IMG/VR virus record: IMGVR_UViG_3300025853_000068
Coordinates: 2,882-66,881 of that record
DNA from: a virus
DNA length: 64,000 nt
Reading direction: 5' to 3' (one strand)
In this document: piece after piece, positions 16,899 through 58,028 of the stretch
Numbering within the stretch: position 1 is the stretch's first letter
Layout of the letters: every line of letters begins with the position of its first letter
Program-made: the position numbers and the translations under genes
Notes under the pieces: model-generated
Told to the model about the DNA's origin: nothing
The model's database searches: none
What the model saw: the letters and a program-made list of their open reading frames with translations, nothing else

Positions 16899-18395
16899 TT
16901 ACTTCATTAACATGAAGTTGTTAGCACCTTGAACAACTAAACATCTTTCAGATAGATAGTTCACTTGCATTGCATCAAGATCAGAAGTGATGTTTCCACC
17001 AACAGATCCAGTAATCCAAGTTTTCATTTTTCTATCGTCCATTTGAGAAGCTCTATAACGTACGTGTAAGAACGGACGCTTTAAGTTTCTACCTAATGTT
17101 TGATCGTATACAGTTGATACACCAGCAGGAATAACAACCCCACGGATACCAAAGCCTGCAGCTCTATCGTTGATAGATCCACGAGTAGCTTTGTCGTTTA
17201 AGTATCGCATGTCAGACTTATAGAAGTCGTAAGAACCTCTTCGGAATCCAGAGAAACCTAAGTTCAACGCCATATCTTCGTCGTTGTTAAATACTCCGTA
17301 AGAAGTACCACCAGCACCGTAAGAGTTCATTGAAGCTAACATATCGTCGATAGCTAAGCTAGTCGCACGGTTAACAAATAGCATGTTCTCTTCAATAGCA
17401 CCTTGCTTATCAAACTCTGCTAAGATAGCGTCAAACTCTGCTAAGTCAGTAGCAGCGTTAACACCAGTAACACCAGTAGTAACGTTACCACGAGTCTCAA
17501 TAGCAGCGAATAAACCTTCAGTACCGTAAGACTCACCAGCTCCGTTAAGTAAAGTTTCGTTAACATCGTTAGCAACGTTAGCACCTTTAACAGCTTCCAT
17601 CATAGTCATCTCTAAGTAATCAGTGAAGCGAGAGCGAGTATCGCCTTCAGCTTTTAAATACCATAAGTAACCATTTTGTCCGTCTTCACCAGCGATTTCT
17701 ACCCAACCGATTTGAGATACATCAGATCCGTTGATTTCGTAGTAATCCTTCATGATGATAGGTTTGTTGCTAAAAGATTTGTGTTGTGGCTCTACAGCCT
17801 TAGCACCTTCAGCAGCTGATCCTTGGCCAGCTGTTCCTTTACCAAACTCAGAACCATATACTAATACTGTACAAGCTACAGTACCAACAGAAAATGCAGC
17901 GGCGTCGTCAATGTTTTCCTTTTCGTAAGGCTTAACAGTAACCTTGTCAGCTGTACCAACTAAAGCGTCAGTAACTAAACACTTGATTACACCTTCAGAA
18001 GTAGCAACGATAACTTGATCGTTTAATCTAATACCGTGAGTAGTAGTTAAAGCGTTTCCGTCAATATCTTTTTGGATAGTTAACTCACCAGTTGCAGTGT
18101 TAATTGTACCCGTGTAAGATAAGTGAAGTCTACCTTGCTCTGTCCAAATAACTTGGTCAGAAGTCATAGACTCTTCAGCACCTACTTGAGATAAGAAACC
18201 TGAAATAGTTCTTGGTCCGAACACTTCAGCTTCAGCTTCAATTAGGTCTGGTAAATACTGCTGCGCCCAGTCGTTGCCAGCGCCGCTCGTAAAGTCAATG
18301 TAGTTTGAAGACAATGTAGCTCTCACTGGAGCAGCTACACTATTTAAACTACCTGTAGTCCCGGAATGCCCAGGACCTGGATTTGTAATTGCCAT
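16899..18395 (-). CDS. Major capsid protein
   Basis: 498 aa after portal and scaffold, followed by strong terminator; WAQQYLPDL, WTEQGRLH, LNLGFSGFRRG, LSERCLVVQGANNF motifs. Confidence 0.85.
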   Translation of the reverse strand: MAITNPGPGHSGTTGSLNSVAAPVRATLSSNYIDFTSGAGNDWAQQYLPDLIEAEAEVFGPRTISGFLSQVGAEESMTSDQVIWTEQGRLHLSYTGTINTATGELTIQKDIDGNALTTTHGIRLNDQVIVATSEGVIKCLVTDALVGTADKVTVKPYEKENIDDAAAFSVGTVACTVLVYGSEFGKGTAGQGSAAEGAKAVEPQHKSFSNKPIIMKDYYEINGSDVSQIGWVEIAGEDGQNGYLWYLKAEGDTRSRFTDYLEMTMMEAVKGANVANDVNETLLNGAGESYGTEGLFAAIETRGNVTTGVTGVNAATDLAEFDAILAEFDKQGAIEENMLFVNRATSLAIDDMLASMNSYGAGGTSYGVFNNDEDMALNLGFSGFRRGSYDFYKSDMRYLNDKATRGSINDRAAGFGIRGVVIPAGVSTVYDQTLGRNLKRPFLHVRYRASQMDDRKMKTWITGSVGGNITSDLDAMQVNYLSERCLVVQGANNFMLMK

Positions 18396-18424
18396 TTTTA
18401 ATTAGTTTTAAATGGATTAATAAT

Positions 18425-19561
18425 TTATTTTCTACCTCGTTTGATTTTAACTTTAAAGTCTGAAGTAGACTCTCCACTTAATACTCTATATGTAGCGCCT
18501 CCAACTTTAACTTCTCTGTTAGTTTGTCTTGGATCCATATTAATGTTCTTAGACTTTTCAACAGAAGTTTTTAAAGCGTCAGCTTTACCTTGTTCGTAAA
18601 AGTGTTGAGCTATAGCGTCTGCGTTCATAGCGGTATATAAACCTTTATGATAACCTGCGGCGTCTTCCATTGATCCCTCTTTATTCAAAAACTTTTTGAT
18701 AAAGTTACCAATATCGCTTTGAGTTTCTTTAACACTATCAACGTTTTTAACATTAAACCTAAACTTCTTTTCTCCTAAGTTATATTCAAAACCTTTGAAT
18801 TTATCAGAGAAAAGACTAGATGTCTTTTTGTTAAACACGTTCTGGTTGCGCTCTTGCGTTTGCTTTGCGCTTTCAGACTCTTTGTTATATCTGTTGAAGA
18901 AATCAATTGCTTTCTGTTGCTCTGTAGTGAGCTTCGATCCAGCTTTGATCTCTTCGTAATATTTAGACTTTTGCCTGTCTAAGTAGGCTTTAGCCTCGGC
19001 AACTTGCTCTTTGAGGGCTATTTTCTTTCTTCTAATATCTTTTTCATCATCAACCTCTTCATCATAGCTAAAGGTTTCGTCCATTAAGAACTTTCTTTCT
19101 TCAACATCTAAATGAGGTTTTGTAATTTTGTAGTACTCTTCTAGCGCTGTTAAATTATCCATTTGACTGTAGTCTTGGTTTAATCTAACATAATCTTCAA
19201 CAGTACCACCTGTTTCGTTTATAAACTCAACTAGCTTTTCAACGTTTTCAGGGAGCTCTACAGTTGGCTTTTCTTCTGCCACCATTTCTTCTGTAGTCTC
19301 CTCGTTTTCTTCTTGAGGCTCTTCTTCTGTAACCTCTTCTAATACTGGAGTTTCTTGTGCTTCACTTTCCGCCTGTACTTCTTCTTGTTGCGGTGCGGCG
19401 TCGGTAGCTTCATCGCTTCCAACCACTCCTGTGTCGTCAGTTGTACCTTCTTCAGCATTGTCCTTTTTGTTTAAGTCCACCTTGTGAACTGTTTCTTCTG
19501 GTTTCTTTTTCAAGCTTACCTTAGTTACGTTTTCTTCTTGTACTTCTTTTGTTTCTTCCAT
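18425..19561 (-). CDS. Capsid scaffolding protein
   Basis: Very acidic N-terminus and coiled-coil; between portal and MCP. Confidence 0.7.
   Translation of the reverse strand: MEETKEVQEENVTKVSLKKKPEETVHKVDLNKKDNAEEGTTDDTGVVGSDEATDAAPQQEEVQAESEAQETPVLEEVTEEEPQEENEETTEEMVAEEKPTVELPENVEKLVEFINETGGTVEDYVRLNQDYSQMDNLTALEEYYKITKPHLDVEERKFLMDETFSYDEEVDDEKDIRRKKIALKEQVAEAKAYLDRQKSKYYEEIKAGSKLTTEQQKAIDFFNRYNKESESAKQTQERNQNVFNKKTSSLFSDKFKGFEYNLGEKKFRFNVKNVDSVKETQSDIGNFIKKFLNKEGSMEDAAGYHKGLYTAMNADAIAQHFYEQGKADALKTSVEKSKNINMDPRQTNREVKVGGATYRVLSGESTSDFKVKIKRGRK
19339..19458 (-). CDS. Overprinted 39-aa basic peptide (ArfA-like) within scaffold gene
   Basis: +1 frame ATG..TAG: MLKKVQLTTQEWLEAMKLPTPHRNKKKYRRKVKHKKLQY; A-rich leader; host gene shows atypical G/C-ending codons here. 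Confidence 0.5.
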   Translation of the reverse strand: MLKKVQLTTQEWLEAMKLPTPHRNKKKYRRKVKHKKLQY

Positions 19562-19578
19562 AATATAAAATATAATAA

Positions 19579-21930
19579 TTAAAACTGATTCATGTTCAAG
19601 CCAGTACTTAATTCATCATTACCTGCTGACTCAAACTTTTTACTCGCCGCCACTTGCCTCTTGTCTTCTATTTGATTTTTAGACTCAGCTTCTAGCGCTC
19701 TTAACTTCATGTTGTATTGATACTCTGCTTCCATTAATTCTTTTTTAATGTCAGCTTCTTGCCTTAAGTTGTTTGATTTAAAACCTGCTTTAGCCTCTTC
19801 TAACTGTATTTGACTTTGAGTTATAGCTTGTTGTTTTTGCATTTCAGCCTGCGCTTGCGCTTGAGCTGTTTGCTGTTGAGCTTGTTGTTGCGCTTGTATG
19901 TTCTGCTGTTGCATTGCTTGCTCTTGCTCCATCTTCTTTTTTTCTTTTATTTTAAGAAGTTCGTTTGCAAGTTTTACGTTTTTAGTAGCTCTAATATCAA
20001 TAGCATCAGATAATCTTATTATCTTTTGAGCTAAAGCCATTTGTATATTGTTTTCTAGCAATTGTCTTTCTTCTTCGTCTGGAGCTAGTTCTATAAATAT
20101 ACCAAAGTCATACAAATGTAAGTCAGCCATTTCTTCTAGCGTAGCCACGTTGTGTACACCTATTTGTTGTAAGAAAGCGTCTCTAGTTGGAGAGTATTCT
20201 ATTATGTCAGATATACGCAAAGATATTTGTTCTGCAACGTCGGCTGTTAAGAATAAACCTGCTTGAAGTATGTGTCTTGTCGCTGTGTTACTATTTGCAG
20301 CCGCTAGCTTTTGAACACCAACTAAAGCGTTTCTGTCTGGTGTACTACCATCTCTAGCTTCATTTAATCCGGTTACATCACGGATCATCTGCATGTAGTA
20401 GTTGTAGTTTGCTATAAGCGTTTGCATTTTAGCTCCAGCGCCTTTACCGTTTGATATTTCTTGTATAGGAACTTTACCTGGGTTTGGATCACCATCAGCA
20501 GTAAACGATCTACCAATTATACTACCAGTTTGGAAGAACATGTTTAGAGCTTCCTGTGGATTGTAATTTGTACCGTTACCTAAGTCTATTTCAGCTAAGC
20601 CATCAGCGTCTAAGTAAACACCATCAGGTACCATACGCGCCATAACTTGTTGCAGCTTCAAGTGTGTGAGCTGTATCATATCTGCAAAACCAGTGATACG
20701 GCTAACGATACTTTCTATTCTACCTTGATACATGCGCGGAGCTACAATACTATAGTTCATCTTGACTTTGCTCATATCGCTTTTTGGCCTAATCATATTT
20801 TCAGCCATCTCCCATTTTAAAAGTTTGTCAGAACCAATAATCATAGCTCCTTCATATAAAACTTCTATTTGTCTTGAAAGTTTAGCAAAGCCACCTTGCA
20901 TGTCTGTAGGTGGATTAAAAGTGTCGTCTTTTTCTATAGCTTTCTCTCCACCTGTTGAGGTTTCTTTTAGCTTGTAAACCTCGTTCATATAAGTTTTCCA
21001 GTTAAAGTATAATACTTCAACTTGATTTATATCTTGATCTCTTCTACCTTTATTGTATTCGTAGGTTCTACTGTTATTATATTGCTGTATATTTTCAAGA
21101 TCTTCTTGGCTTAAGTGTGGAAACTGTTTTACCAACTCGTTAATTGGAATTGTTTTAACTTCACCAACATAGTATATATCATCAAAATATGGAGACTCTG
21201 TGTAAGAGTGAACAATTCTATCTGGATCAACGTAGTCTATAGTTACTCCTTCTGAATTTGTAAAGTTTGTTTTCACAGCAGCCATACCTAAAACTGTTAG
21301 GTCATAGTAAAGCCTTTTCTTAGTAAGCTCGTAGTCGTTGCCTTGTAGTAACACGTTTATAGCTTGCTCTTCCGCTAGCTCAGTAGCTTGCTTATAGGTT
21401 AGCTGCATGTGTAACTCTAGCTCTTCTTCTGTTTCGGGTAAAGTTTCAGGATCGTTTTCTGCAAAGTCCATGTTTAACTGTTGCTTAGCTACAGCATCAA
21501 ACTCTTTCATTTTCATATCACGAAGAACGCTCTCCATGTATTCTGTTCTCTTTGCTACACCGTATGGATCTTGAGAAAATACTTTTATATCGTAGTTTCT
21601 TTCGGCCATACCGTTAACAACAATGTCTACAAACTTAGGTACAACTGGAACAGGCTTCCAGTCTAAGTTTAAGTAGCTTAAGTCACCATTTATAGATAGC
21701 TCGTTTTTATATTTTTGTACAGACTGTTCGCCTCTAGCATATAATCTTAAGTTGTGGAAGTTATTTTTATTACTATAGAACCTTCCGTTGCCACGTATGT
21801 TTCCATCTTCGTTTCTATCAAACCACTCGCTCTCTATAGCTTGTGCAACTTTTAGACCGTAGTCATAGCTTATTTTTTCTATATCAGGTACTACCTGACT
21901 TGGAAAATTGTTAGTGTTTCTGTAAGCCAT
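19579..21930 (-). CDS. Portal protein
   Basis: 783 aa after TerL; LSYLNLDWKPVPVVPKFVDIVVNG, IRDVTGLNEARDG; Gln-rich C-terminal coiled coil. Confidence 0.85.
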   Translation of the reverse strand: MAYRNTNNFPSQVVPDIEKISYDYGLKVAQAIESEWFDRNEDGNIRGNGRFYSNKNNFHNLRLYARGEQSVQKYKNELSINGDLSYLNLDWKPVPVVPKFVDIVVNGMAERNYDIKVFSQDPYGVAKRTEYMESVLRDMKMKEFDAVAKQQLNMDFAENDPETLPETEEELELHMQLTYKQATELAEEQAINVLLQGNDYELTKKRLYYDLTVLGMAAVKTNFTNSEGVTIDYVDPDRIVHSYTESPYFDDIYYVGEVKTIPINELVKQFPHLSQEDLENIQQYNNSRTYEYNKGRRDQDINQVEVLYFNWKTYMNEVYKLKETSTGGEKAIEKDDTFNPPTDMQGGFAKLSRQIEVLYEGAMIIGSDKLLKWEMAENMIRPKSDMSKVKMNYSIVAPRMYQGRIESIVSRITGFADMIQLTHLKLQQVMARMVPDGVYLDADGLAEIDLGNGTNYNPQEALNMFFQTGSIIGRSFTADGDPNPGKVPIQEISNGKGAGAKMQTLIANYNYYMQMIRDVTGLNEARDGSTPDRNALVGVQKLAAANSNTATRHILQAGLFLTADVAEQISLRISDIIEYSPTRDAFLQQIGVHNVATLEEMADLHLYDFGIFIELAPDEEERQLLENNIQMALAQKIIRLSDAIDIRATKNVKLANELLKIKEKKKMEQEQAMQQQNIQAQQQAQQQTAQAQAQAEMQKQQAITQSQIQLEEAKAGFKSNNLRQEADIKKELMEAEYQYNMKLRALEAESKNQIEDKRQVAASKKFESAGNDELSTGLNMNQF

Positions 21931-21932
21931 AT

Positions 21933-24152
21933 TTAATTTTTAATTATTTTAGAGTTTACACCATCGTTACTATATTTAGAAAACGAAAAGCCTAATGGTT
22001 TTCTTTTTCTTTCTTTTACTGGTCTATACAAGTGTCTATTACAAGCCATAACAGCTAGCCCAGAACTTATCGCGGCATCAAACTTAGTTCTTTTATTTAT
22101 ATCAAACTTAGCCCAGTCGTTTAATGTTTCGTTAAAATACATTGTTCCATAAGTGCCATCTTCCATTAACCCAACGTGATCGTTGATATACATTTCAATA
22201 GCAGCAGCATGAGCTTGTTTAATATCTTCACTAGAGTTCGGTATACCACCTATTTCTTTTTCAGTAATAGATAATTTATTCCAAACTTTATCTGGTCTGT
22301 TCATACTGAATCCTCTATATCCTCTACGCTTTAGATGATACAGTAATCTTGGTTTATTGTTTTCTGCTAGCAATGGCATGCCGTAGAACACTAACGCCAT
22401 TAGCACATCTTCAAAAAATATTTCAGCGGTTTGTGGTCTTGCTATGTATTCTAGAAAAAAAGTATTTGCTGGAGCTGACTCCATACTAAACTTAGTTAGT
22501 CCATGAAGAGATCCGTTGGATCCTCTACCGTCAACAGTGCCGCTAATATCATAGCTATCGCAGCCAAAAGCGCCCATGTGTTCGTTTGCAGGATACTTAA
22601 TTCCATTTTTAATTATAACATTATTCTGCAAGTTAAAATCCGGAACCCAACTAACTTTAAATCTACCGTTAGGATCTGGAGTAAAAACTACAGATGTATC
22701 TTTTATGCCGTTTACCCACTGAAAATTACCAGTGTTTAAAACTGCTGAGCTAGTTATACCTTCGTTGTAATCTATTTGCTCATATATTTTCACAAGATTA
22801 AAAAGACTATTTTTTGTCTCATCTCTAAACGCGTGCTCTTCAGTTCTTGGAAACTGTCTATAAAACTCGTTTAAAGCGTCTTGATCTCCTTTTAAACCTT
22901 CAACTTCATTTTCCCAATGCGATATAACACCTACGTCTATTAGTTCGCCATGTGGTCCTCGTACATCATGACTTGGGCTATTAAAAACAGGTTGTCCGTA
23001 TTCGTCAATAAATCCTTCAAAGTTCCATTCCATTGGGATAAACAAAGAATATAAACCAGACTTTGTTTGTCCATTACGGTTTCTGTTTTTAGCATTTGAG
23101 TCATTGTAGAGCTTTTTAAAATTATCACCACCTTTATCTAACGAGTTAGACGTTGATCCCATCATGCATTTACCAACTATACGAGCACCTAGCCTTAAAC
23201 AAGTTTTAGTTACTCGCCAGTTGTTTAGAATATTATCAGGCCTCTCCCACTTACCACTTTCATCGTGTACTAGTAGATTAAGCTTCTCTCCATCATAGCT
23301 GTTATCGCCTGTGTTTTTCCAATCAATAGTAGTGTCAAGTCCAACCAGCTCTTCCTGCTTTTCGTTTGCAGTAATTTTTTTACGCGTAAACTTACTTGCA
23401 GGAACCCTATAAGCAAGTTCACTTTTAGGCCTGTCCATACCGTCTTGTATCGGTTTAAAGAAAAACGGATAGTTGACAGATATTGGTACAACTTTATCGG
23501 TAAACATTTTTTTAGCATCAGCACCACTTTTTGATAGTATTCCATATCTAGCATCACTCGATATAGTAGCTAAGTTAACAGTCTCAGCTGAGCTCATGAA
23601 AGAAAAACCACTACGTCTATTTTTTAAGTAACACATGCCATAGCACCTGCTATCAGCTTTGCACGCTTCCCAAAATATAAAGAACAGCCTGTTGGCTTCT
23701 CTAAAATCTGGAGCTCCAACATCTATTTTACTCCATTGAAGATACATGTAGTGACTACCTGTTATATACGTAGACACTCCGTTATTGTTAAACCAAAAGC
23801 CTTCTTCACGATTTTTGAATTCATCATCAATAAAATCGTACCACTTTTCTTTTAATTCCTCAGGATAGTTTCTCCAGTCAAATATACTTTTTAACTTACC
23901 TAACTCTTTAGGGTACTCAAGCCTTTTCCACTTGTTTAGTTCATTGGAGTGCACTTGCACTGGTTCCAACGGCAAAGCAATTTGCAACCCTTGTATTTCA
24001 ATGATCTCGCCAATTCTACCAGTTTTTGATATGACAATGATATTGTTTTCTTTATTGTATCCATATTCCCATTTACGTTTTTTGTTAAGTCGACTTATAG
24101 TAGTCTTCTTAACTGGTTCAACAATTTTATATAAGCTTTGTTCGTAACTCAT
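21933..24152 (-). CDS. terL: Terminase large subunit
   Basis: Walker A-like KNRRSGFS, Walker B LLVHDESGK, nuclease domain FGCDSYD...KFDAAISSG. Confidence 0.9.
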   Translation of the reverse strand: MSYEQSLYKIVEPVKKTTISRLNKKRKWEYGYNKENNIIVISKTGRIGEIIEIQGLQIALPLEPVQVHSNELNKWKRLEYPKELGKLKSIFDWRNYPEELKEKWYDFIDDEFKNREEGFWFNNNGVSTYITGSHYMYLQWSKIDVGAPDFREANRLFFIFWEACKADSRCYGMCYLKNRRSGFSFMSSAETVNLATISSDARYGILSKSGADAKKMFTDKVVPISVNYPFFFKPIQDGMDRPKSELAYRVPASKFTRKKITANEKQEELVGLDTTIDWKNTGDNSYDGEKLNLLVHDESGKWERPDNILNNWRVTKTCLRLGARIVGKCMMGSTSNSLDKGGDNFKKLYNDSNAKNRNRNGQTKSGLYSLFIPMEWNFEGFIDEYGQPVFNSPSHDVRGPHGELIDVGVISHWENEVEGLKGDQDALNEFYRQFPRTEEHAFRDETKNSLFNLVKIYEQIDYNEGITSSAVLNTGNFQWVNGIKDTSVVFTPDPNGRFKVSWVPDFNLQNNVIIKNGIKYPANEHMGAFGCDSYDISGTVDGRGSNGSLHGLTKFSMESAPANTFFLEYIARPQTAEIFFEDVLMALVFYGMPLLAENNKPRLLYHLKRRGYRGFSMNRPDKVWNKLSITEKEIGGIPNSSEDIKQAHAAAIEMYINDHVGLMEDGTYGTMYFNETLNDWAKFDINKRTKFDAAISSGLAVMACNRHLYRPVKERKRKPLGFSFSKYSNDGVNSKIIKN

Positions 24153-28246: not shown

Positions 28247-28504
28247 TTAATCTACTAATACAATATCACTTGACTTTATAACAAAATAAAACTTACCGTC
28301 ATATTCTATTACATGGCCAGCGTGTCTATCATACCACACCACATCCTCTTGTTTAATTACTTCTACTAGATTACCTATAGAAATAACTCTACCTTTGAAG
28401 TATCTGATCTCTTCGTCTCTAACTTCATCAAGTATAAGCCCACCTTTTGTTACAGGCTTTTCTTTTATACGATCTACTACTACGTAATGATTAACTGCTT
28501 TCAT
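28247..28504 (-). CDS. groS: Co-chaperonin GroES
   Basis: TKGGLIL mobile loop, GRVISIG, YDRHAGHVIEYDG...DIV; adjacent to GroEL. Confidence 0.9.
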   Translation of the reverse strand: MKAVNHYVVVDRIKEKPVTKGGLILDEVRDEEIRYFKGRVISIGNLVEVIKQEDVVWYDRHAGHVIEYDGKFYFVIKSSDIVLVD

Positions 28505-30059
28505 TTACTCGTACGTTTGAGATTACACAATCAGCAGAGATAATAGTAGATACTACGCTCACCGCGTTTTTTAAAGCAGATTTAGTTACAAGCACTGGAT
28601 CTATGATACCAGATTTAACCATGTTAATACGTTCACTAGTTATAGCGTCTCTTCCATAACCTTCATGATCTACAGACTCTTTGTCTATAAATATACCAGC
28701 GTTAGCTAATATAGTATCAAAAGGAGCTCTAATAGCTTTGAGTAGTAATTCTTCACCGACATCGTCGGTCGAAATTTTTTGAGATGCATTAAGGAGGGCA
28801 ACGCCGCCCCCTGGTACTATACCTTCTTTCAACGCAGCCTTTGTAGCATAAATCGCATCCTCGACCCTGTCTTTCTTTTCTTTAAGCTCAACTTTAGAGT
28901 TTGCCCCAACGCGGATAATTCCAACACTACCCGATAGCATAGACAATCTTTGTTCCAGCTTCTTTTTAATGAAACTATTTTTCTCATCTGCGATTTGTTT
29001 GTTTACTTGATCGATGCGTTCACCTATAGCTTCTACATCAACATCTAACGTTATAACAGTATTCTTATCATCTGTTTCTGCATAGTCAGCTTCACCAAGA
29101 TGATCTGATGACATCATTTCTAAATCATCACCTAGCTCTTCGTTAAATAGAGTAGCACCTGTCATTATGGCTAGATCTTGACAAGTGTCGTTTCTAGTAG
29201 GGCCAAATCCTGGTAAGTCAATAATATTTACTTTAATATTACCTTTTACTTTGTTCATCAATAAAGATGATTTAACTTGTTGAGATACTGGCGCTACTAT
29301 TAATAGTGATCTGTTCTGCTTGATAACATGCTCTAGTATATTCTGTATCTTACGCATGTTAGGTATCTCAGACGTGCATATCAACACTAGAGGATTATCT
29401 AACTCTGCTTTCTGCTTGTCAGTATTAGTAACAAAGTGTGGAGATGTTAGTGCGCAATCAAATTGTATACCATCTACAGTGTCTACGTAAGTTTCATCTG
29501 TGCCAGAACCTTCCATAAGCACAACACCGTCTTTACCTACAGACGTATAAGCTTCTGCTATAATCGTTCCAAGCTTTTTATCGTTGTTACAACTGATAGT
29601 AGCTACGTTGTTAAGCATGTCAGAGTCTACTTCTATTTTGATGGAGTCTAAATATTTCATGACTTTGTCTAGACCAGACTGCATACCTTGCTTTATTTCT
29701 CTAATTGTAGCTTTGTCCATAGAGTTATAGACATGTGTAAGTATTGATTCTGCTAAAACAGTGGCGGTAGTCGTACCATCACCCGCTTCACGCACTGTAT
29801 TGCTAGCAGCTTCTTTAATAAGCGTAGCTCCGATGTTTTCTACAGGGTCAAATAACACTACTGACTGCGCCACAGTAACGCCATCTTTAGTAATTACCGG
29901 GTTACCTCGCGAATCTTCGTAAATTACGCACTTACCAGACGCACCGAGTGTAGATTTTACTGCTTTTGCTAGTTTGTTTACGCCAGAAATGACGCGATTT
30001 TTAGCCTCATCGCCAAAATTAAGGTCTTTGACGATCTCGCTAGGGAGATTGTATTCCAT
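28491..30059 (-). CDS. groL: Chaperonin GroEL
   Basis: [40 protein letters not shown]; lacks GGM tail. Confidence 0.95.
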
Positions 30060-30085
30060 TATATTAAATTAAATTAAATTACTAC

Positions 30086-45987: not shown

Positions 45988-46654
45988 TTTTAAAACAGCT
46001 AACGATGCTTTTCATGATTTATACTGGCGTCTTGTACGCGACGGTGTAGACTTTGCTGGAACTAAAGCATTATTTAATGCTGGTTTTTATATTGAAAACC
46101 CTGCTTTAAATGATATTAAAGACAGTAAAGTTAAGCGCAATTGGTCTATTGAATATGCTGAAGCCGAATGGCAGTGGTATCTTTCAGGTCAACCATACAT
46201 TCAAAAGCTAGGAGACATATATGGTAAAGTACCTGCTATATGGAAACGTATGGCTAACGATCAAGGCTTTGTTAATTCTAACTACGGTTATCAATGGGAT
46301 AGAGAAGATCAATTGTCTAATGTTATTAGTATGTTAAGACAAAACCCTGACACTAGGCAAGCTGCAATATCTATATTTGATGGCAAAGAAAGACAGTTAT
46401 ATAATAATGATACTCCATGTACATACGCTGTACAGTTTACAATATTGCATGGCAAGCTTGATATGTCTGTTCTAATGCGATCTAATGATCTCTGGTACGG
46501 TTTCTGTAATGATCAGTATCAGTTTTCAAACTTACAAATGCTAGTTGCTCACGAGTTAAATATACCAGTTGGCGTATATTACCACTATGCACACAATTTG
46601 CACTTGTACAACGACAAATTACCAGAAGATAAAACTAGAAACTACCACTTATGA
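45968..46654 (+). CDS. Thymidylate synthase-family enzyme, dCMP hydroxymethylase-like
   Basis: VNSNYG, DTPCT (catalytic Cys), MRSNDLWYGFCND, HNLHLY; Asp at the Asn177-equivalent specificity position. Confidence 0.8.
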   Translation: MENTMHSFKTANDAFHDLYWRLVRDGVDFAGTKALFNAGFYIENPALNDIKDSKVKRNWSIEYAEAEWQWYLSGQPYIQKLGDIYGKVPAIWKRMANDQGFVNSNYGYQWDREDQLSNVISMLRQNPDTRQAAISIFDGKERQLYNNDTPCTYAVQFTILHGKLDMSVLMRSNDLWYGFCNDQYQFSNLQMLVAHELNIPVGVYYHYAHNLHLYNDKLPEDKTRNYHL

Positions 46655-47469
46655 TGTATGCTATTTATCACATACCCGGTGTTAAAATCGGTGTAACAAA
46701 TAACATTAAACACAGGGTTGAAGAACAACAAGGATACGACGTTGGCGAGTATGAAATACTAGAAATGTCTGACGATATAGATTATATATCTAAGCGTGAA
46801 CTGTATTTGCAAGAGCGCCACGGCTATAGAGTTGATCGACAGCTTTATAAAGATTTATTTAATAACAATTTTATAGAATTAAACAATATGGATATAAATG
46901 TAACTGAAATGACCACAACTTTTCCTTGCCCGGTCAATAAACTAAAAGGCAGACTTATGGATAACCTCGGTAAGTCTTGGGAAACAATCGCTGGCCCTGT
47001 TATGGTAACAGAGTCTTCAATACGATGGATAATGGATAACGTTAAATCATCACAGTATACTAGTGATCGATGCTATGTGTATAATAAAGCTTTTGCTAGA
47101 TGGTTTGACAACAACGACCCTCATAGAGATACAATTAAATTCACCAGCTGTAGTACAGCGTGCGATGATTGTGGTGAAGAAATATTTGACTGTATTAGAG
47201 CTTGGGCTAACGAAAGAGGCTTGTACGATAAAGGCGATCCTAAAACACAGTACATTAAGTTAATGGAAGAGACTGGTGAGATCGGTAGAGCTATACTTAA
47301 AAATGACACTGAACAAATTATTGATGGTATTGGCGACGCTGTAGTTGTATTAACTAACTTGGCTGAGCTATGCGGCGTGCCTATTGAAGAGTGTATACAA
47401 GAAGCTTACAACGTTATTAGTAAGCGTACAGGTAAAATGGTTAACGGAACATTTGTAAAAGATAATTAA
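46651..47469 (+). CDS. MazG-like NTP pyrophosphohydrolase with GIY-YIG-like N-terminal extension
   Basis: C-terminal KLMEETGEI...DGIGDAVVVL; N-terminal YAIYHI...KIGVT...R. Confidence 0.7.
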   Translation: MMYAIYHIPGVKIGVTNNIKHRVEEQQGYDVGEYEILEMSDDIDYISKRELYLQERHGYRVDRQLYKDLFNNNFIELNNMDINVTEMTTTFPCPVNKLKGRLMDNLGKSWETIAGPVMVTESSIRWIMDNVKSSQYTSDRCYVYNKAFARWFDNNDPHRDTIKFTSCSTACDDCGEEIFDCIRAWANERGLYDKGDPKTQYIKLMEETGEIGRAILKNDTEQIIDGIGDAVVVLTNLAELCGVPIEECIQEAYNVISKRTGKMVNGTFVKDN

Positions 47470-55722: not shown

Positions 55723-57687
55723 TTAGTTTTTAATTATTCTTTTATTAATTATTAAGTTGTTGTGTTTAATTATAATAGTATATATGCCAGGGGTTAGTTT
55801 CGTAACATCTAAGGCATTTATATTTTGTTTTTGTATAAGTATATCCCCCAGCATATTAATCACTGTAAGATCAACTTTTTTACTTACGTATATATAATCA
55901 CTTGTAGGGTTGGGATATGTAACTAGATCATTTCTAAATTCAATTAAGTCTGTAGGGCCTGTCCAACCATCAACACAATACTGATATAAGCTAACACAGC
56001 CTTGATCCCACTCTTGATCGCAGCAATACTCATCTACTTCTATAACCCAAGCAAAGCAATCATTAGGTAAAGTATAGACATCACCAATAGCGCAACCAGC
56101 AGAGTATTCACACGATGAGTCAGGTACATTAACAAGCGGATCGTAGTTAATAGCAGTCGGGTCATTGCAGCCATAAATAGCATAAACACATGAGCCGTTA
56201 TCAGTATTAGCATCATCGTCGTAATTGAGTGCGGTACTGTCCATGCATCCATAATAAAAAGGTATACAACTACCATTGTCTGTATTTGCATTAGGGTCAT
56301 AGTTAAACATCGTAGCGTCCATGCAACCATAGAATACTTCTATACAACTACCATCGTCTGTGTTTGCTAGCGGATCGTAATTAAACGCTGTTACATCTGT
56401 ACAGCCGTAAGCATAATAAATGCAAGAGTTATCGCTTACGTTTGCCAACGAGTCGTAGTTCATAGCTGTAATATCCATACAGCCCTCTATAATAGCTACG
56501 CAAGTGTCAGGCGTATTAGCTAGTGGGTTGTAATTAAAAGCAAACTCGTTCATACAACCCAACACTGTAGGTATACAAGATCCTGCTAGCTCTACATTTG
56601 CGGTTGAGTCAAAGTTGAAAGCTGTACTATCCATACAACCTAACACAACTAAAGTATTACAGCTACCATCATCATAATCAGCGCTAGCATTATATTCTAA
56701 GTATATAGGATTCGTGCAGCCTGTTACATAGTAGCAGGTATTATCGTCAGTGTTAGCTACGGCATTGTAATTTAAAGCTGAAACGTCAGTACAACCATAA
56801 ACTCTATCGATACAACTATTACCACAGTAAGGCACGCCAACCACGTTAACAAAAGGAACTAGTGGGCTAGCAAATCCTCCTGGTGCATTAATAGCCACGT
56901 GCTCATCAGAATATAAACTATAACCGCATTGCACTGACGTAAATTGTGACTGTTGTGTTATATTAAATTTTACTTGCACAGGCTCTGCTACGCTTAACTC
57001 AAATGTAAACGTAGTGTCAAAGCCATTATCAAGAGTAAATATACCTAAAAAGTTGTTGCCTTGAAACACCTGTAGATATGCTCCAGCCCAACCGTTGCCA
57101 GCTAAGTCTGTAAGCTCTAATGTATGCGTACAACTATCTATTAGTATATCTGTGTTAGCTGAGTCTACGTAATTATAAGCAAGCGAATCTGTACAGCCAA
57201 ATAATTTCTCTGTGAAACACATCCCTGTGTCTACAGTTGCTATTGGCAAGAACTCTACAAAGCTATTATCCATGCAACCGTATATAGGCGGTGGCGGAGC
57301 GCAGTCATCTACTGTAAACCCATGGTAAGCAACAAAACCAAAGTTAGCCGAGTCTATTTCAACTATAGTATCATTACATCTTACTAAGTAGTACGAGCCA
57401 TCTTGCCCACCCCATAGGCTACCTTGCATGCCATCTCCATAGGTATCACTTATTACAAATTCGTAGTCACCATTAGGTACACAAAGCTGAGTTACTTGTG
57501 GAGAGTAATCTATAATGTTATCGTAAGGACCGCCAGTTACAACAGTATCTAAGTTGTAGTCCAATATAGCCCATGAAGTTTCTTCTGGATACTGATCTGG
57601 ATTTATAACGATGTTTAGATATGTTCCGTTAGGACATTGCGCAAGCGCTATGTTAATGCAAAATAATAGTGTAATTAAATACTTCAT
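55723..57687 (-). CDS. Secreted Cys-repeat protein with T9SS (type A) C-terminal sorting domain
   Basis: Signal MKYLITLLFCINIALA-Q; 11 GC(M/T)D...NY...AN...SC repeats; C-terminal YPNPTSD...INMLG...LDVTKLTPGIY...KRIIKN. Confidence 0.85.
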   Translation of the reverse strand: MKYLITLLFCINIALAQCPNGTYLNIVINPDQYPEETSWAILDYNLDTVVTGGPYDNIIDYSPQVTQLCVPNGDYEFVISDTYGDGMQGSLWGGQDGSYYLVRCNDTIVEIDSANFGFVAYHGFTVDDCAPPPPIYGCMDNSFVEFLPIATVDTGMCFTEKLFGCTDSLAYNYVDSANTDILIDSCTHTLELTDLAGNGWAGAYLQVFQGNNFLGIFTLDNGFDTTFTFELSVAEPVQVKFNITQQSQFTSVQCGYSLYSDEHVAINAPGGFASPLVPFVNVVGVPYCGNSCIDRVYGCTDVSALNYNAVANTDDNTCYYVTGCTNPIYLEYNASADYDDGSCNTLVVLGCMDSTAFNFDSTANVELAGSCIPTVLGCMNEFAFNYNPLANTPDTCVAIIEGCMDITAMNYDSLANVSDNSCIYYAYGCTDVTAFNYDPLANTDDGSCIEVFYGCMDATMFNYDPNANTDNGSCIPFYYGCMDSTALNYDDDANTDNGSCVYAIYGCNDPTAINYDPLVNVPDSSCEYSAGCAIGDVYTLPNDCFAWVIEVDEYCCDQEWDQGCVSLYQYCVDGWTGPTDLIEFRNDLVTYPNPTSDYIYVSKKVDLTVINMLGDILIQKQNINALDVTKLTPGIYTIIIKHNNLIINKRIIKN

Positions 57688-58028
57688 TAAAATTTACTTA
57701 TTATAAGTTCATCAATATATTCCTGTATCTCTTCTCTTGTAGCAACCATTTTAAAACTAAGATCAGCTTGAAAACGTTTTACTTCTTCGCCTTCGTCAAA
57801 CACAATGATAGTAGGTACAATAGCAATAGCGTATTTTTTTTGTGTATCAGCGTTGTCAATACTTAGGCTTTTTTTGCCAGCGTCTGACAGCTTGTTAAAC
57901 CATTCAACATCGTTAGCTTCGTTCCAGCCAGCGTTGAAGTGTATTACTTTAACTTGACTATAGGTTACGCCAATAGTAAAAGCGATTATAATTATAAGCG
58001 CGTATAAAAATTTAGTAAACTTATTCAT
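57687..58028 (-). CDS. Secreted thioredoxin-fold protein lacking CxxC
   Basis: Signal peptide ending YS-Q; HFNAGWN in place of FxAxWC; IVPTIIVF...GEEVKRF. Confidence 0.7.
   Translation of the reverse strand: MNKFTKFLYALIIIIAFTIGVTYSQVKVIHFNAGWNEANDVEWFNKLSDAGKKSLSIDNADTQKKYAIAIVPTIIVFDEGEEVKRFQADLSFKMVATREEIQEYIDELIISKF

Follow-up and report, generated by a model that had tools for sequence, protein, structure and literature searches.

A small gene for a basic peptide of 39 residues is hidden, one base out of phase, inside a larger gene of the phage sequence analysed here, a window of 64,000 nucleotides (nt) that covers most (positions 2,882 to 66,881) of the 66.9-kb IMG/VR record IMGVR_UViG_3300025853_000068. 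The larger gene (18425–19561, minus strand) encodes a 378-aa protein and occupies the scaffold position among the head genes; the nested open reading frame (ORF; 19339–19458, minus strand) begins 103 nt into it and is read in its +1 frame. Judging from the comparison of related genes, the nested ORF genuinely codes for a protein, and selection maintains the readability of both frames. The nested ORF had first been singled out in an initial annotation made from the letters of the window, and it exists with a sequence identical, letter for letter, to the one quoted there. The label “scaffold” is given to the larger gene by position only, together with the acidic nature of its N-terminal ~100 residues and the “structural protein” homologues that it has in Flavobacterium elemo phages.

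At least 598 relatives of the scaffold-position gene were found in IMG/VR, the best 80 of which (56–78% protein identity to the window’s) were used for comparison; once three exact duplicates (L006, L029 and L048) had been dropped, 78 distinct genes were left, including the window’s own. In 66 of them, a homologous ATG-started ORF of 39–49 codons occupies the same place in the +1 frame (hereafter type A) and shares the pattern L-T-T-x-E-W-L-x-x-[ML]-K-x-P-x-P-x-x-N-K-K-K-Y-x-R-K-x-K-H-K-K, and a profile of the relatives matches the window peptide at E = 1e-23. Seven other genes carry a different +1 ORF (type B, discussed below) and five carry none; no +2-frame ORF of at least 25 codons is present in the nested-gene region of any of the 78 distinct genes. 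The initial annotation had proposed such a comparison, in search of stops or lack of conservation in close relatives, and what was found is a +1 frame that is open, homologous and ATG-started. It had also cautioned that Glu-rich genes have intrinsically Lys-rich, open +1 frames, but this fails as an explanation: the same +1 frame of the five peptide-less relatives holds roughly 11–15 stops in its first 120 codons (counted from translations), and a Glu-rich host frame alone therefore does not keep the +1 frame open.

The signature of selection is visible in both frames. Over the conserved 87-nt core (62 distinct sequences), column entropy at peptide codon positions 1, 2 and 3 amounts to 0.42, 0.38 and 0.77, respectively, and invariant residues number 9 of 29 in the +1 frame versus 0 of 28 in the host frame, although simple conservation counts of this kind are inflated by the relatedness of the sequences. 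In a codon alignment of the 66 type-A genes, third positions of the host frame are the most variable everywhere (0.74–1.34 per 12-codon block), except over window codons 30–72, where their entropy drops to 0.44–0.75 and host first positions become the most variable. Overall, host third-position entropy is 0.477 inside the overlap (40 columns) versus 1.045 outside (331 columns; Mann–Whitney p = 3.9e-10), a contrast that was not created by shared ancestry, since the same sequences are compared in both regions. Hence, start and ORF are kept in diverged relatives, and host synonymous variation is suppressed where the third positions of the nested frame vary, as is looked for in overlapping genes; the proposal of a functional peptide gene overprinted in the scaffold gene is thereby upheld. 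One of the arguments initially advanced for it has to be withdrawn, however. Host codons over the overlap were said to be unusually G/C-ending, as under dual coding, yet the G+C content of third positions (GC3) is lower in the overlap (0.25 over codons 35–74) than in the rest of the gene (0.32) or in the remaining acidic part (0.35). Near-identical natural variants were also collected from four sequencing runs: among the variants listed, three of the five inside the overlap are silent in the peptide and alter the host protein (two overlap variants share one Arg codon and, combined, would yield another Arg codon), and those outside are mostly silent changes of host third positions.

Homologues of the peptide also exist as free-standing genes. 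Of 80 additional loci from IMG/VR, 48 have the gene nested in a same-strand ORF of at least 100 codons, all 48 embedding ORFs being homologues of the window’s scaffold-position gene, and it is not nested in the other 32. The stand-alone copies have an intergenic leader of their own, and their start is the equivalent Met. Stops (3.5 on average) break the frame equivalent to that of the scaffold gene in 22 of the 24 distinct copies of this kind, which implies that nested copies have been recoded to keep this frame open and that both frames are under selection; the third frame holds about four stops in the nested and stand-alone sets alike. As to the neighbourhoods of stand-alone copies, they lie 1–1.5 kb downstream of a GroEL-like homologue in four phage loci (L085, L088, L119, L128), near a homologue of the window’s DNA ligase in L086, L087, L140, L143 and L144, after a tail sheath gene in L089, and elsewhere beside an AAA ATPase, an endonuclease or a nucleotide-sugar epimerase, on contigs of up to 91–116 kb that are estimated to be 28–70% complete. 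The non-basic residues E, W, N, Y and H are conserved across all these contexts.

These genes belong to a widespread family of basic proteins of 40–50 aa that, according to our sequence searches, is restricted to phages as far as tested. In a set of 5.8 billion proteins, the peptide profile finds 210 called proteins of 21–86 aa (E ≤ 0.01), for example P0087 (43 aa), a homologue present on 204 contigs of up to 165 kb, and a HMMER pass over 1.84 billion representatives returns 85 of them at E ≤ 1e-3 (24 at E ≤ 1e-10); at 50% identity, the family comprises at least 85 clusters. A pattern-based scan of 185,579 species genomes, which is of limited reach, gave two matches, both on contigs of 19–24 kb from metagenome-assembled genomes (MAGs), and when the family to which one of these MAGs belongs was examined (301 genomes), the only matches were that MAG itself and one copy broken by three stops. 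In the common build, an N-terminus that is variable and Lys-rich is followed by a conserved short helix (L-T-x-Q-E-W..A-x-K), in many cases by P-x-P, and then by the extended tail N-K-K-K-Y-x-R-K-x-K-H-K. Distant members retain [LV]-T-x-Q-E-[IW]..A-x-[RK]....[KR]-[NS]-K-K-x-Y-x-R-K-x-K-H-K, P-x-P not being universal. The window peptide itself is soluble and basic (about 40% Lys + Arg, counted from its sequence), without any hydrophobic segment. A search for fused forms, which is a weak one, brought up six proteins of 87–225 aa with no Pfam domains and no functional lead.

Matches to already named families are weak. With Pfam DUF7230 (PF23876), the window peptide scores 15.4 bits (E = 0.021; 11.5 bits in the genome search) against a cut-off of 27 bits; matches at E ≤ 1, all of them below the cut-off, are obtained for 23 of 36 family members (the best with 1.2e-4), and 12 of 17 stand-alone members match it too. 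PHROG 6310, for which no curated cut-off exists, is matched weakly by residues 15–36 of the window peptide (E = 1.8e-4) and by 20 of 36 members at E ≤ 0.1 (best 4.8e-5). Like type A, DUF7230 and PHROG 6310 (also 18092 and 2701) are small phage proteins (~42 residues) with a basic C-terminal part, but the match is confined to the tail (profile positions 19–36) and nesting in a scaffold gene is absent from the family descriptions. On these scores, DUF7230 is a probable distant relative of type A rather than its family. A full-text literature search turned up no paper mentioning DUF7230; a search for the NKKKY motif retrieved nothing relevant among the papers listed, judging by titles (monkeypox epitopes, H. 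pylori CagA), and one for overlapping genes in phage scaffolding proteins retrieved nothing on this gene, judging by the listing, supplementary tables being outside the search.

No carrier of type A was found among 50,697 records of isolate phages: blastn with the host gene gave no match, and tblastn gave none with either the window peptide (E ≤ 1) or the stand-alone family member P0016 (E ≤ 10), a search in which the low-complexity filter may hide Lys-rich matches. Profile searches of the whole records of a Flavobacterium elemo phage and of Phage C75C1 yielded no type-A peptide either. In the five peptide-less relatives, no displaced copy was found over their whole records, but these are only 8–15% complete, too little for this negative to carry weight.

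Regarding its expression, the nested gene would be translated by independent initiation at its own ATG. This is suggested by the presence of an own ATG in every type-A copy, by a +1-frame stop codon just upstream (four codons before the ATG in the window), by the Met starts of the stand-alone copies and by the A-rich leader. The leader with an A at −3 that the initial annotation had described is indeed there (...AAACAAAAAGGACAATG), and it has no Shine-Dalgarno spacing. From stop to stop, the +1 frame spans 43 codons in the window and 37–64 in the nested relatives. An A is found at −3 in 85% of the 66 relatives, and the mean A content of positions −18 to −1 reaches 0.57 in these relatives, versus 0.39 upstream of 1071 other ATGs that lie out of frame in these genes; as a control, it is 0.47 upstream of 33 long ORFs of the window. 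According to PMC6847099, initiation in Flavobacterium johnsoniae, which dispenses with Shine-Dalgarno sites, is promoted by an A at −3. The A-rich context with its A at −3 may thus be the kind of signal that ribosomes of Bacteroidota use in place of a Shine-Dalgarno site, and the peptide would be made late, from abundant head-gene mRNA. Table 1 gathers the positions of the features discussed in this work.

Table 1. Nested gene, its parts and neighbours in the window, and loci with type-B peptides in other phages.
Feature	Position	Strand	Remarks
Overprinted small gene (type A)	19339–19458	−	39 codons + TAG stop at 19339–19341; strongly basic product
Conserved 87-nt core, residues 7–35 (L-T-T-x-E-W-L..K-x-P-x-P..N-K-K-K-Y-x-R-K-x-K-H-K)	19354–19440	−	Gapless in all type-A relatives
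Basic tail N-K-K-K-Y-R-R-K-V-K-H-K-K, residues 24–36	19351–19389	−	Most deeply conserved motif of the family; contains the Y-x-R-K-x-K-H common to ArfA
A-rich leader preceding the nested ORF, within the coding sequence of the host gene	19459–19476	−	Sequence; control comparison
Host gene, 378-aa protein, scaffold position	18425–19561	−	Between portal and capsid-type genes; codons 35–74 overlap the nested gene
Portal gene, upstream neighbour	19579–21930	−	phrog_6547 portal protein, E = 6.8e-148
Gene for a 498-aa head/virion structural protein, downstream neighbour, capsid position	16899–18395	−	phrog_13704 virion structural protein (head and packaging category), E = 4.8e-103
739-aa ORF, terminase position	21933–24152	−	Position; no Pfam match
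Type B	L002:1607–1747, L021:1580–1708, L038:1607–1753, L044:1583–1741	+	Nested +1 ORF
Type B	L045:1607–1753, L078:1265–1423, L079:1550–1693	+	Nested +1 ORF
Unannotated 34-codon stand-alone type-B ORF	Phage C75C1 OQ984151.1, L082:3001–3105	+	Type-B profile, E = 6e-13

None of the genes at the portal, capsid, terminase and scaffold positions (16899–24152, minus strand) has a Pfam match at E ≤ 0.01, and names for two of them, the portal and the structural protein, come from PHROGs alone; for the 378-aa protein, neither PHROGs nor Pfam has a matching family. Its N-terminal ~100 residues are acidic and hypervariable. The homologues in isolate phages match it at 37.5% identity over residues 102–354 only, and the one in Flavobacterium elemo phage is annotated “structural protein”. 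By number of matching records, the closest isolates infect Flavobacterium (68 of 77), Cellulophaga (7) and Maribacter (1). A 656-aa protein of the window (55726–57693, minus strand) bears a C-terminal sorting domain of the type IX secretion system (Por_Secre_tail, E = 1.1e-7), i.e., a Bacteroidota secretion signal on a phage protein. Because the nearest isolates infect these genera and because of this sorting domain, the host of the phage is almost certainly a member of Bacteroidota. The window further encodes a 525-aa chaperonin of the GroEL/Cpn60 type (28494–30068, minus strand; PF00118, E = 6.6e-53), an ATP-dependent DNA ligase (39717–40571, plus strand) and a MazG-domain protein (46639–47466, plus strand). 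Its scaffold-position gene is listed in 20 runs from 14 studies.

In the seven type-B genes, the same slot and the same +1 frame hold another basic peptide of 43–53 aa (M-P-F-x-S-K-A-Q-M-R-Y-L-F-A-T-N-P-K-L-A-K-K...), unrelated to type A (hhalign probability 0.13%). Six of the seven match phrog_1375 (best E = 2.6e-7), and an Atlas look-up with the type-B peptide returned a cluster with DUF3008 on 14% of it (score 0.77), which is taken as a lead only. The stand-alone type-B ORF of Phage C75C1 is flanked by two annotated hypothetical genes, the second of which it overlaps at the start. The nearest scaffold relative of the window’s gene (L002, 89% identical over the 274 C-terminal columns) carries type B, not type A. 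On a tree of the C-terminal domain of the scaffold-position proteins (a quick tree, rooted at midpoint and supported only by the Shimodaira–Hasegawa-like approximate likelihood ratio test, SH-aLRT), the seven type-B genes need six changes, at least five of which are forced by well-supported branches, a number in line with shuffled labels (mean 6.8). The N-terminal module thus looks like a recombining cassette, that is, a swappable slot for unrelated basic-peptide genes. The repeated exchange of A and B suggests either that they are functional analogues tied to head-gene expression or that the Glu-rich linker is the sole place that tolerates a Lys-rich overlap. Three relatives, L038 and L045 (scaffold nt 25–109) and L074 (scaffold nt 19–121), have another short ORF of the +1 frame (27–33 codons, Lys-rich then hydrophobic) that lies upstream of the main slot; it may be due to chance or be another nested gene.

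How did the overlap arise? The peptide frame is probably the older one here, with the acidic linker of the scaffold protein reading across it, because the same gene stands alone in other, distant phages. The N-terminal ~100 residues of the scaffold-position protein fall outside the alignment with the elemo-phage homologues. On these grounds, the likeliest origin would be a scaffold frame that came to run across a pre-existing mini-gene, or across an exchangeable module carrying one; that the peptide was born de novo within the scaffold gene is less likely.

With respect to function, an AlphaFold2 model (36 sequences; mean predicted local distance difference test score, pLDDT, 72.5) has a helix at residues 9–15, a helical turn at 25–28 and coil elsewhere, and hence describes the peptide as a docking helix followed by an extended basic tail. 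The helix may dock on a conserved partner and the tail may bind a structured nucleic acid of the host. As a tentative guess, the target would be such a host nucleic acid, with rRNA (a site of the mRNA-channel type) as the leading candidate, and the peptide would act in the cytoplasm, not in the virion. A host target is preferred to a role in the head because specific non-basic residues are kept across unlike virions and gene neighbourhoods. Some points weigh against this guess: no homology to any ribosome-binding protein was detected, the unrelated type B has replaced type A in the same slot at least five times, and this repeated swap would be accounted for no less well by a generic role of basic peptides in connection with head assembly. 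Targets other than host nucleic acids and head components account for the remainder of our expectations.

The second reading is precisely such a role in the head, in which the peptide, which the initial annotation had alternatively envisaged as condensing DNA, would be produced alongside the head proteins and loaded into procapsids, possibly via the acidic N-terminus of the scaffold protein, and would bind phage DNA or the procapsid as a charge-neutralising component. We guess this to be rather improbable, despite the observations that speak for it, i.e., that all 48 nested copies sit in a scaffold homologue between portal and capsid genes, that the product is very basic, with Lys and Arg making up some 40% of it, and that an unrelated basic peptide has repeatedly taken the same slot. 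Protein J of phiX174-type microviruses offers a precedent: it is a very basic DNA-binding packaging peptide of about 25–40 residues that neutralises the packaged DNA. Set side by side by description only, protein J and type A are both very basic and encoded among head genes; unlike protein J, type A keeps a specific motif across phages with unlike capsids and is often found outside head modules. Indeed, its stand-alone copies are mostly located away from any recognisable head module, and the family spans very different virions yet retains specific non-basic residues. Moreover, Flavobacterium elemo phages, the closest isolates, have a homologue of the scaffold-position protein but no such peptide genome-wide, and the preference for this slot may have another cause, the Glu-rich linker being possibly the sole place where a Lys-rich overlapping frame is tolerated.

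The third reading is more specific and assigns the peptide to ribosome factors of the ArfA type. Its tail, N-K-K-K-Y-x-R-K-x-K-H, would enter the empty mRNA entry channel of the 30S subunit like that of ArfA or BrfA, whether to recruit a release factor as a late rescue factor or to plug the channel and retune translation in these marine Bacteroidota phages. By this analogy it is conceivable, but we consider it quite unlikely. The homology to ArfA that the initial annotation had in mind did not materialise. Pfam ArfA (PF03889; cut-off 25.5 bits) matches no frame of the phage genome at E ≤ 10, even though the positive control, E. coli arfA, scores 89.7 bits, and it matches none of the 36 + 17 family members at E ≤ 1. 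Profile–profile comparison by hhalign gives 2.2% (alignment A1 versus E. coli ArfA) and 6.2% (A5 versus a low-diversity alignment of 16 ArfA sequences) over 20 columns, and a profile search of PDB sequences (A1, E ≤ 10) returns no ArfA chain. The sole PDB match was a fragment of the EphA2 SAM domain (E = 1.2), which we regard as due to chance.

What remains of the likeness is the tail. BLASTP of the window peptide against ArfA finds 6 identities out of 12 (E = 0.033 for this single comparison), and Y-x-R-K-x-K-H aligns without gaps with ArfA residues 39–45 (Y39–H45), at positions that are conserved in both families. Within R-K-x-K-H, alignments A1 and A5 have an invariant R and second K, a first K conserved at 90% or more, and H as the consensus; in A4, H reaches at least 90%. 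Composition-preserving shuffles nevertheless attain the observed ArfA score in 18–30 cases per 1000 (p about 0.02–0.03), which, given that the comparison was chosen post hoc, is marginal. In passages of PMC5378476, residues 31–48 of ArfA are described as filling the mRNA tunnel, and truncation after Met40 as inactivating. In the portion of PMC8012679 that bears on this point, a Lys-His motif binding a pocket of the entry channel is the sole outstanding likeness of ArfA to BrfA, and type A possesses the Lys-His pair of an ArfA-type basic C-terminal tail. Passages of PMC6299226 present ArfT as a protein of 40 aa with a similar basic stretch and KGKGS as conserved in the tunnel-binding tail of ArfA; type A lacks KGKGS and has N-K-K-K at the aligned positions. 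All three factors are small, type A sharing the basic tail [YF]-x-R-K-x-K-H with ArfA and the Lys-His pair with both ArfA and BrfA, and its size and build are like those of ArfA, with a short N-terminal element and an extended basic tail.

On the other side, the N-terminal part of ArfA, which binds release factor 2 (RF2), is not alignable with type A, and type B, which is unrelated and devoid of Y-x-R-K-x-K-H, substitutes for it in the same slot. ArfA is a cellular protein whose retrieved relatives are all enterobacterial; type A is restricted to phages, with Bacteroidota hosts. No tRNA or transfer-messenger RNA (tmRNA) gene was found in the window, which therefore provides no translation-related context. 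A predicted complex between the peptide (A1) and the post-frameshift part of an RF2 of Flavobacteriaceae (score 0.01, mark 0.32) counts neither way, its controls not having been folded, and a neighbouring Atlas cluster of 46-aa proteins with Pfam ArfA on 23% of its 62 members (score 0.90) is a lead only. As far as alignments go, the resemblance to ArfA is limited to one short motif and constitutes a lead on mechanism, not a family assignment.

Returning to the gene itself, several observations weigh against it or against its general use. ORF length by itself is unremarkable in this sequence: 1962 of 5000 synonymous-codon shuffles of the host gene (39%) yield an ATG-started +1 ORF of at least 39 codons. 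A natural variant at window position 19457 (one contig from RNA-library run X15) turns the nested ATG into ACG and is silent in the scaffold frame; such a strain would be without the nested start, the next in-frame Met being residue 16, and the variant is evidence against universal use of this start. Transcription of the host gene in nature is weakly indicated by RNA-library contigs, which cover the whole gene in X15 (30 of 30 bins, at 88% likeness or better) and 15 of 30 bins in run X16, but carried-over DNA may also explain them. Irrespective of its target, we nonetheless regard it as quite probable that the nested ORF is a real overprinted gene of a phage-restricted basic family and that it is translated by internal initiation.

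A +1 ribosomal frameshift from the scaffold frame, which would produce a short fusion of the scaffold N-terminus to the basic tail and no independent peptide, is very unlikely: P0153 (110 aa, one contig) does read the scaffold frame and then the type-A frame, but this one record most probably reflects an indel in the assembly; besides, an ATG of its own, with a +1-frame stop just upstream, is present in each of the 66 type-A copies, and stand-alone homologues start at the equivalent Met. Finally, a chance open frame without product, Lys-rich and open through the mere composition of a Glu-rich gene, would accommodate the shuffles and the lost ATG, but it is scarcely credible, being already contradicted by all comparative evidence (a peptide more strongly conserved than the host protein over the same bases, frozen host third positions, free-standing homologues, and roughly 11–15 stops over 120 codons of the same frame in peptide-less relatives).

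Fully nested genes are known in other phages, e.g., the lysis gene E inside the scaffold gene D of phiX174 and Rz1 inside Rz of lambda. Both resemble the present case in that the entire small gene is read in the +1 frame of a larger one, which in phiX174 is also a scaffold gene. However, the lysis factors E and Rz1, which are membrane proteins or lipoproteins, originated where they now lie, whereas type A is soluble and basic and has free-standing homologues; unlike them, it is probably the older partner of its overlap, in a slot exchangeable with an unrelated peptide gene. The case provides unusually clean evidence that an overlap can arise when a long gene comes to be read across a mini-gene that is older, frames rich in Lys and in Glu being natural partners one base apart, and the disordered N-terminal linker of the scaffold-position protein acts as an exchangeable site for unrelated genes of basic peptides. 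Since gene callers never reported the nested gene, an abundant clade of marine phages has been left with an unannotated protein. Being phage-restricted and endowed with a sharply conserved motif, the family offers a defined and cheap target for anyone seeking a new small effector of phages. Should the ribosome reading prove true, the peptide would be, to our knowledge, the first phage-encoded protein of the ArfA functional type, and a gene hidden in the scaffold gene would ride the most abundant late mRNA.

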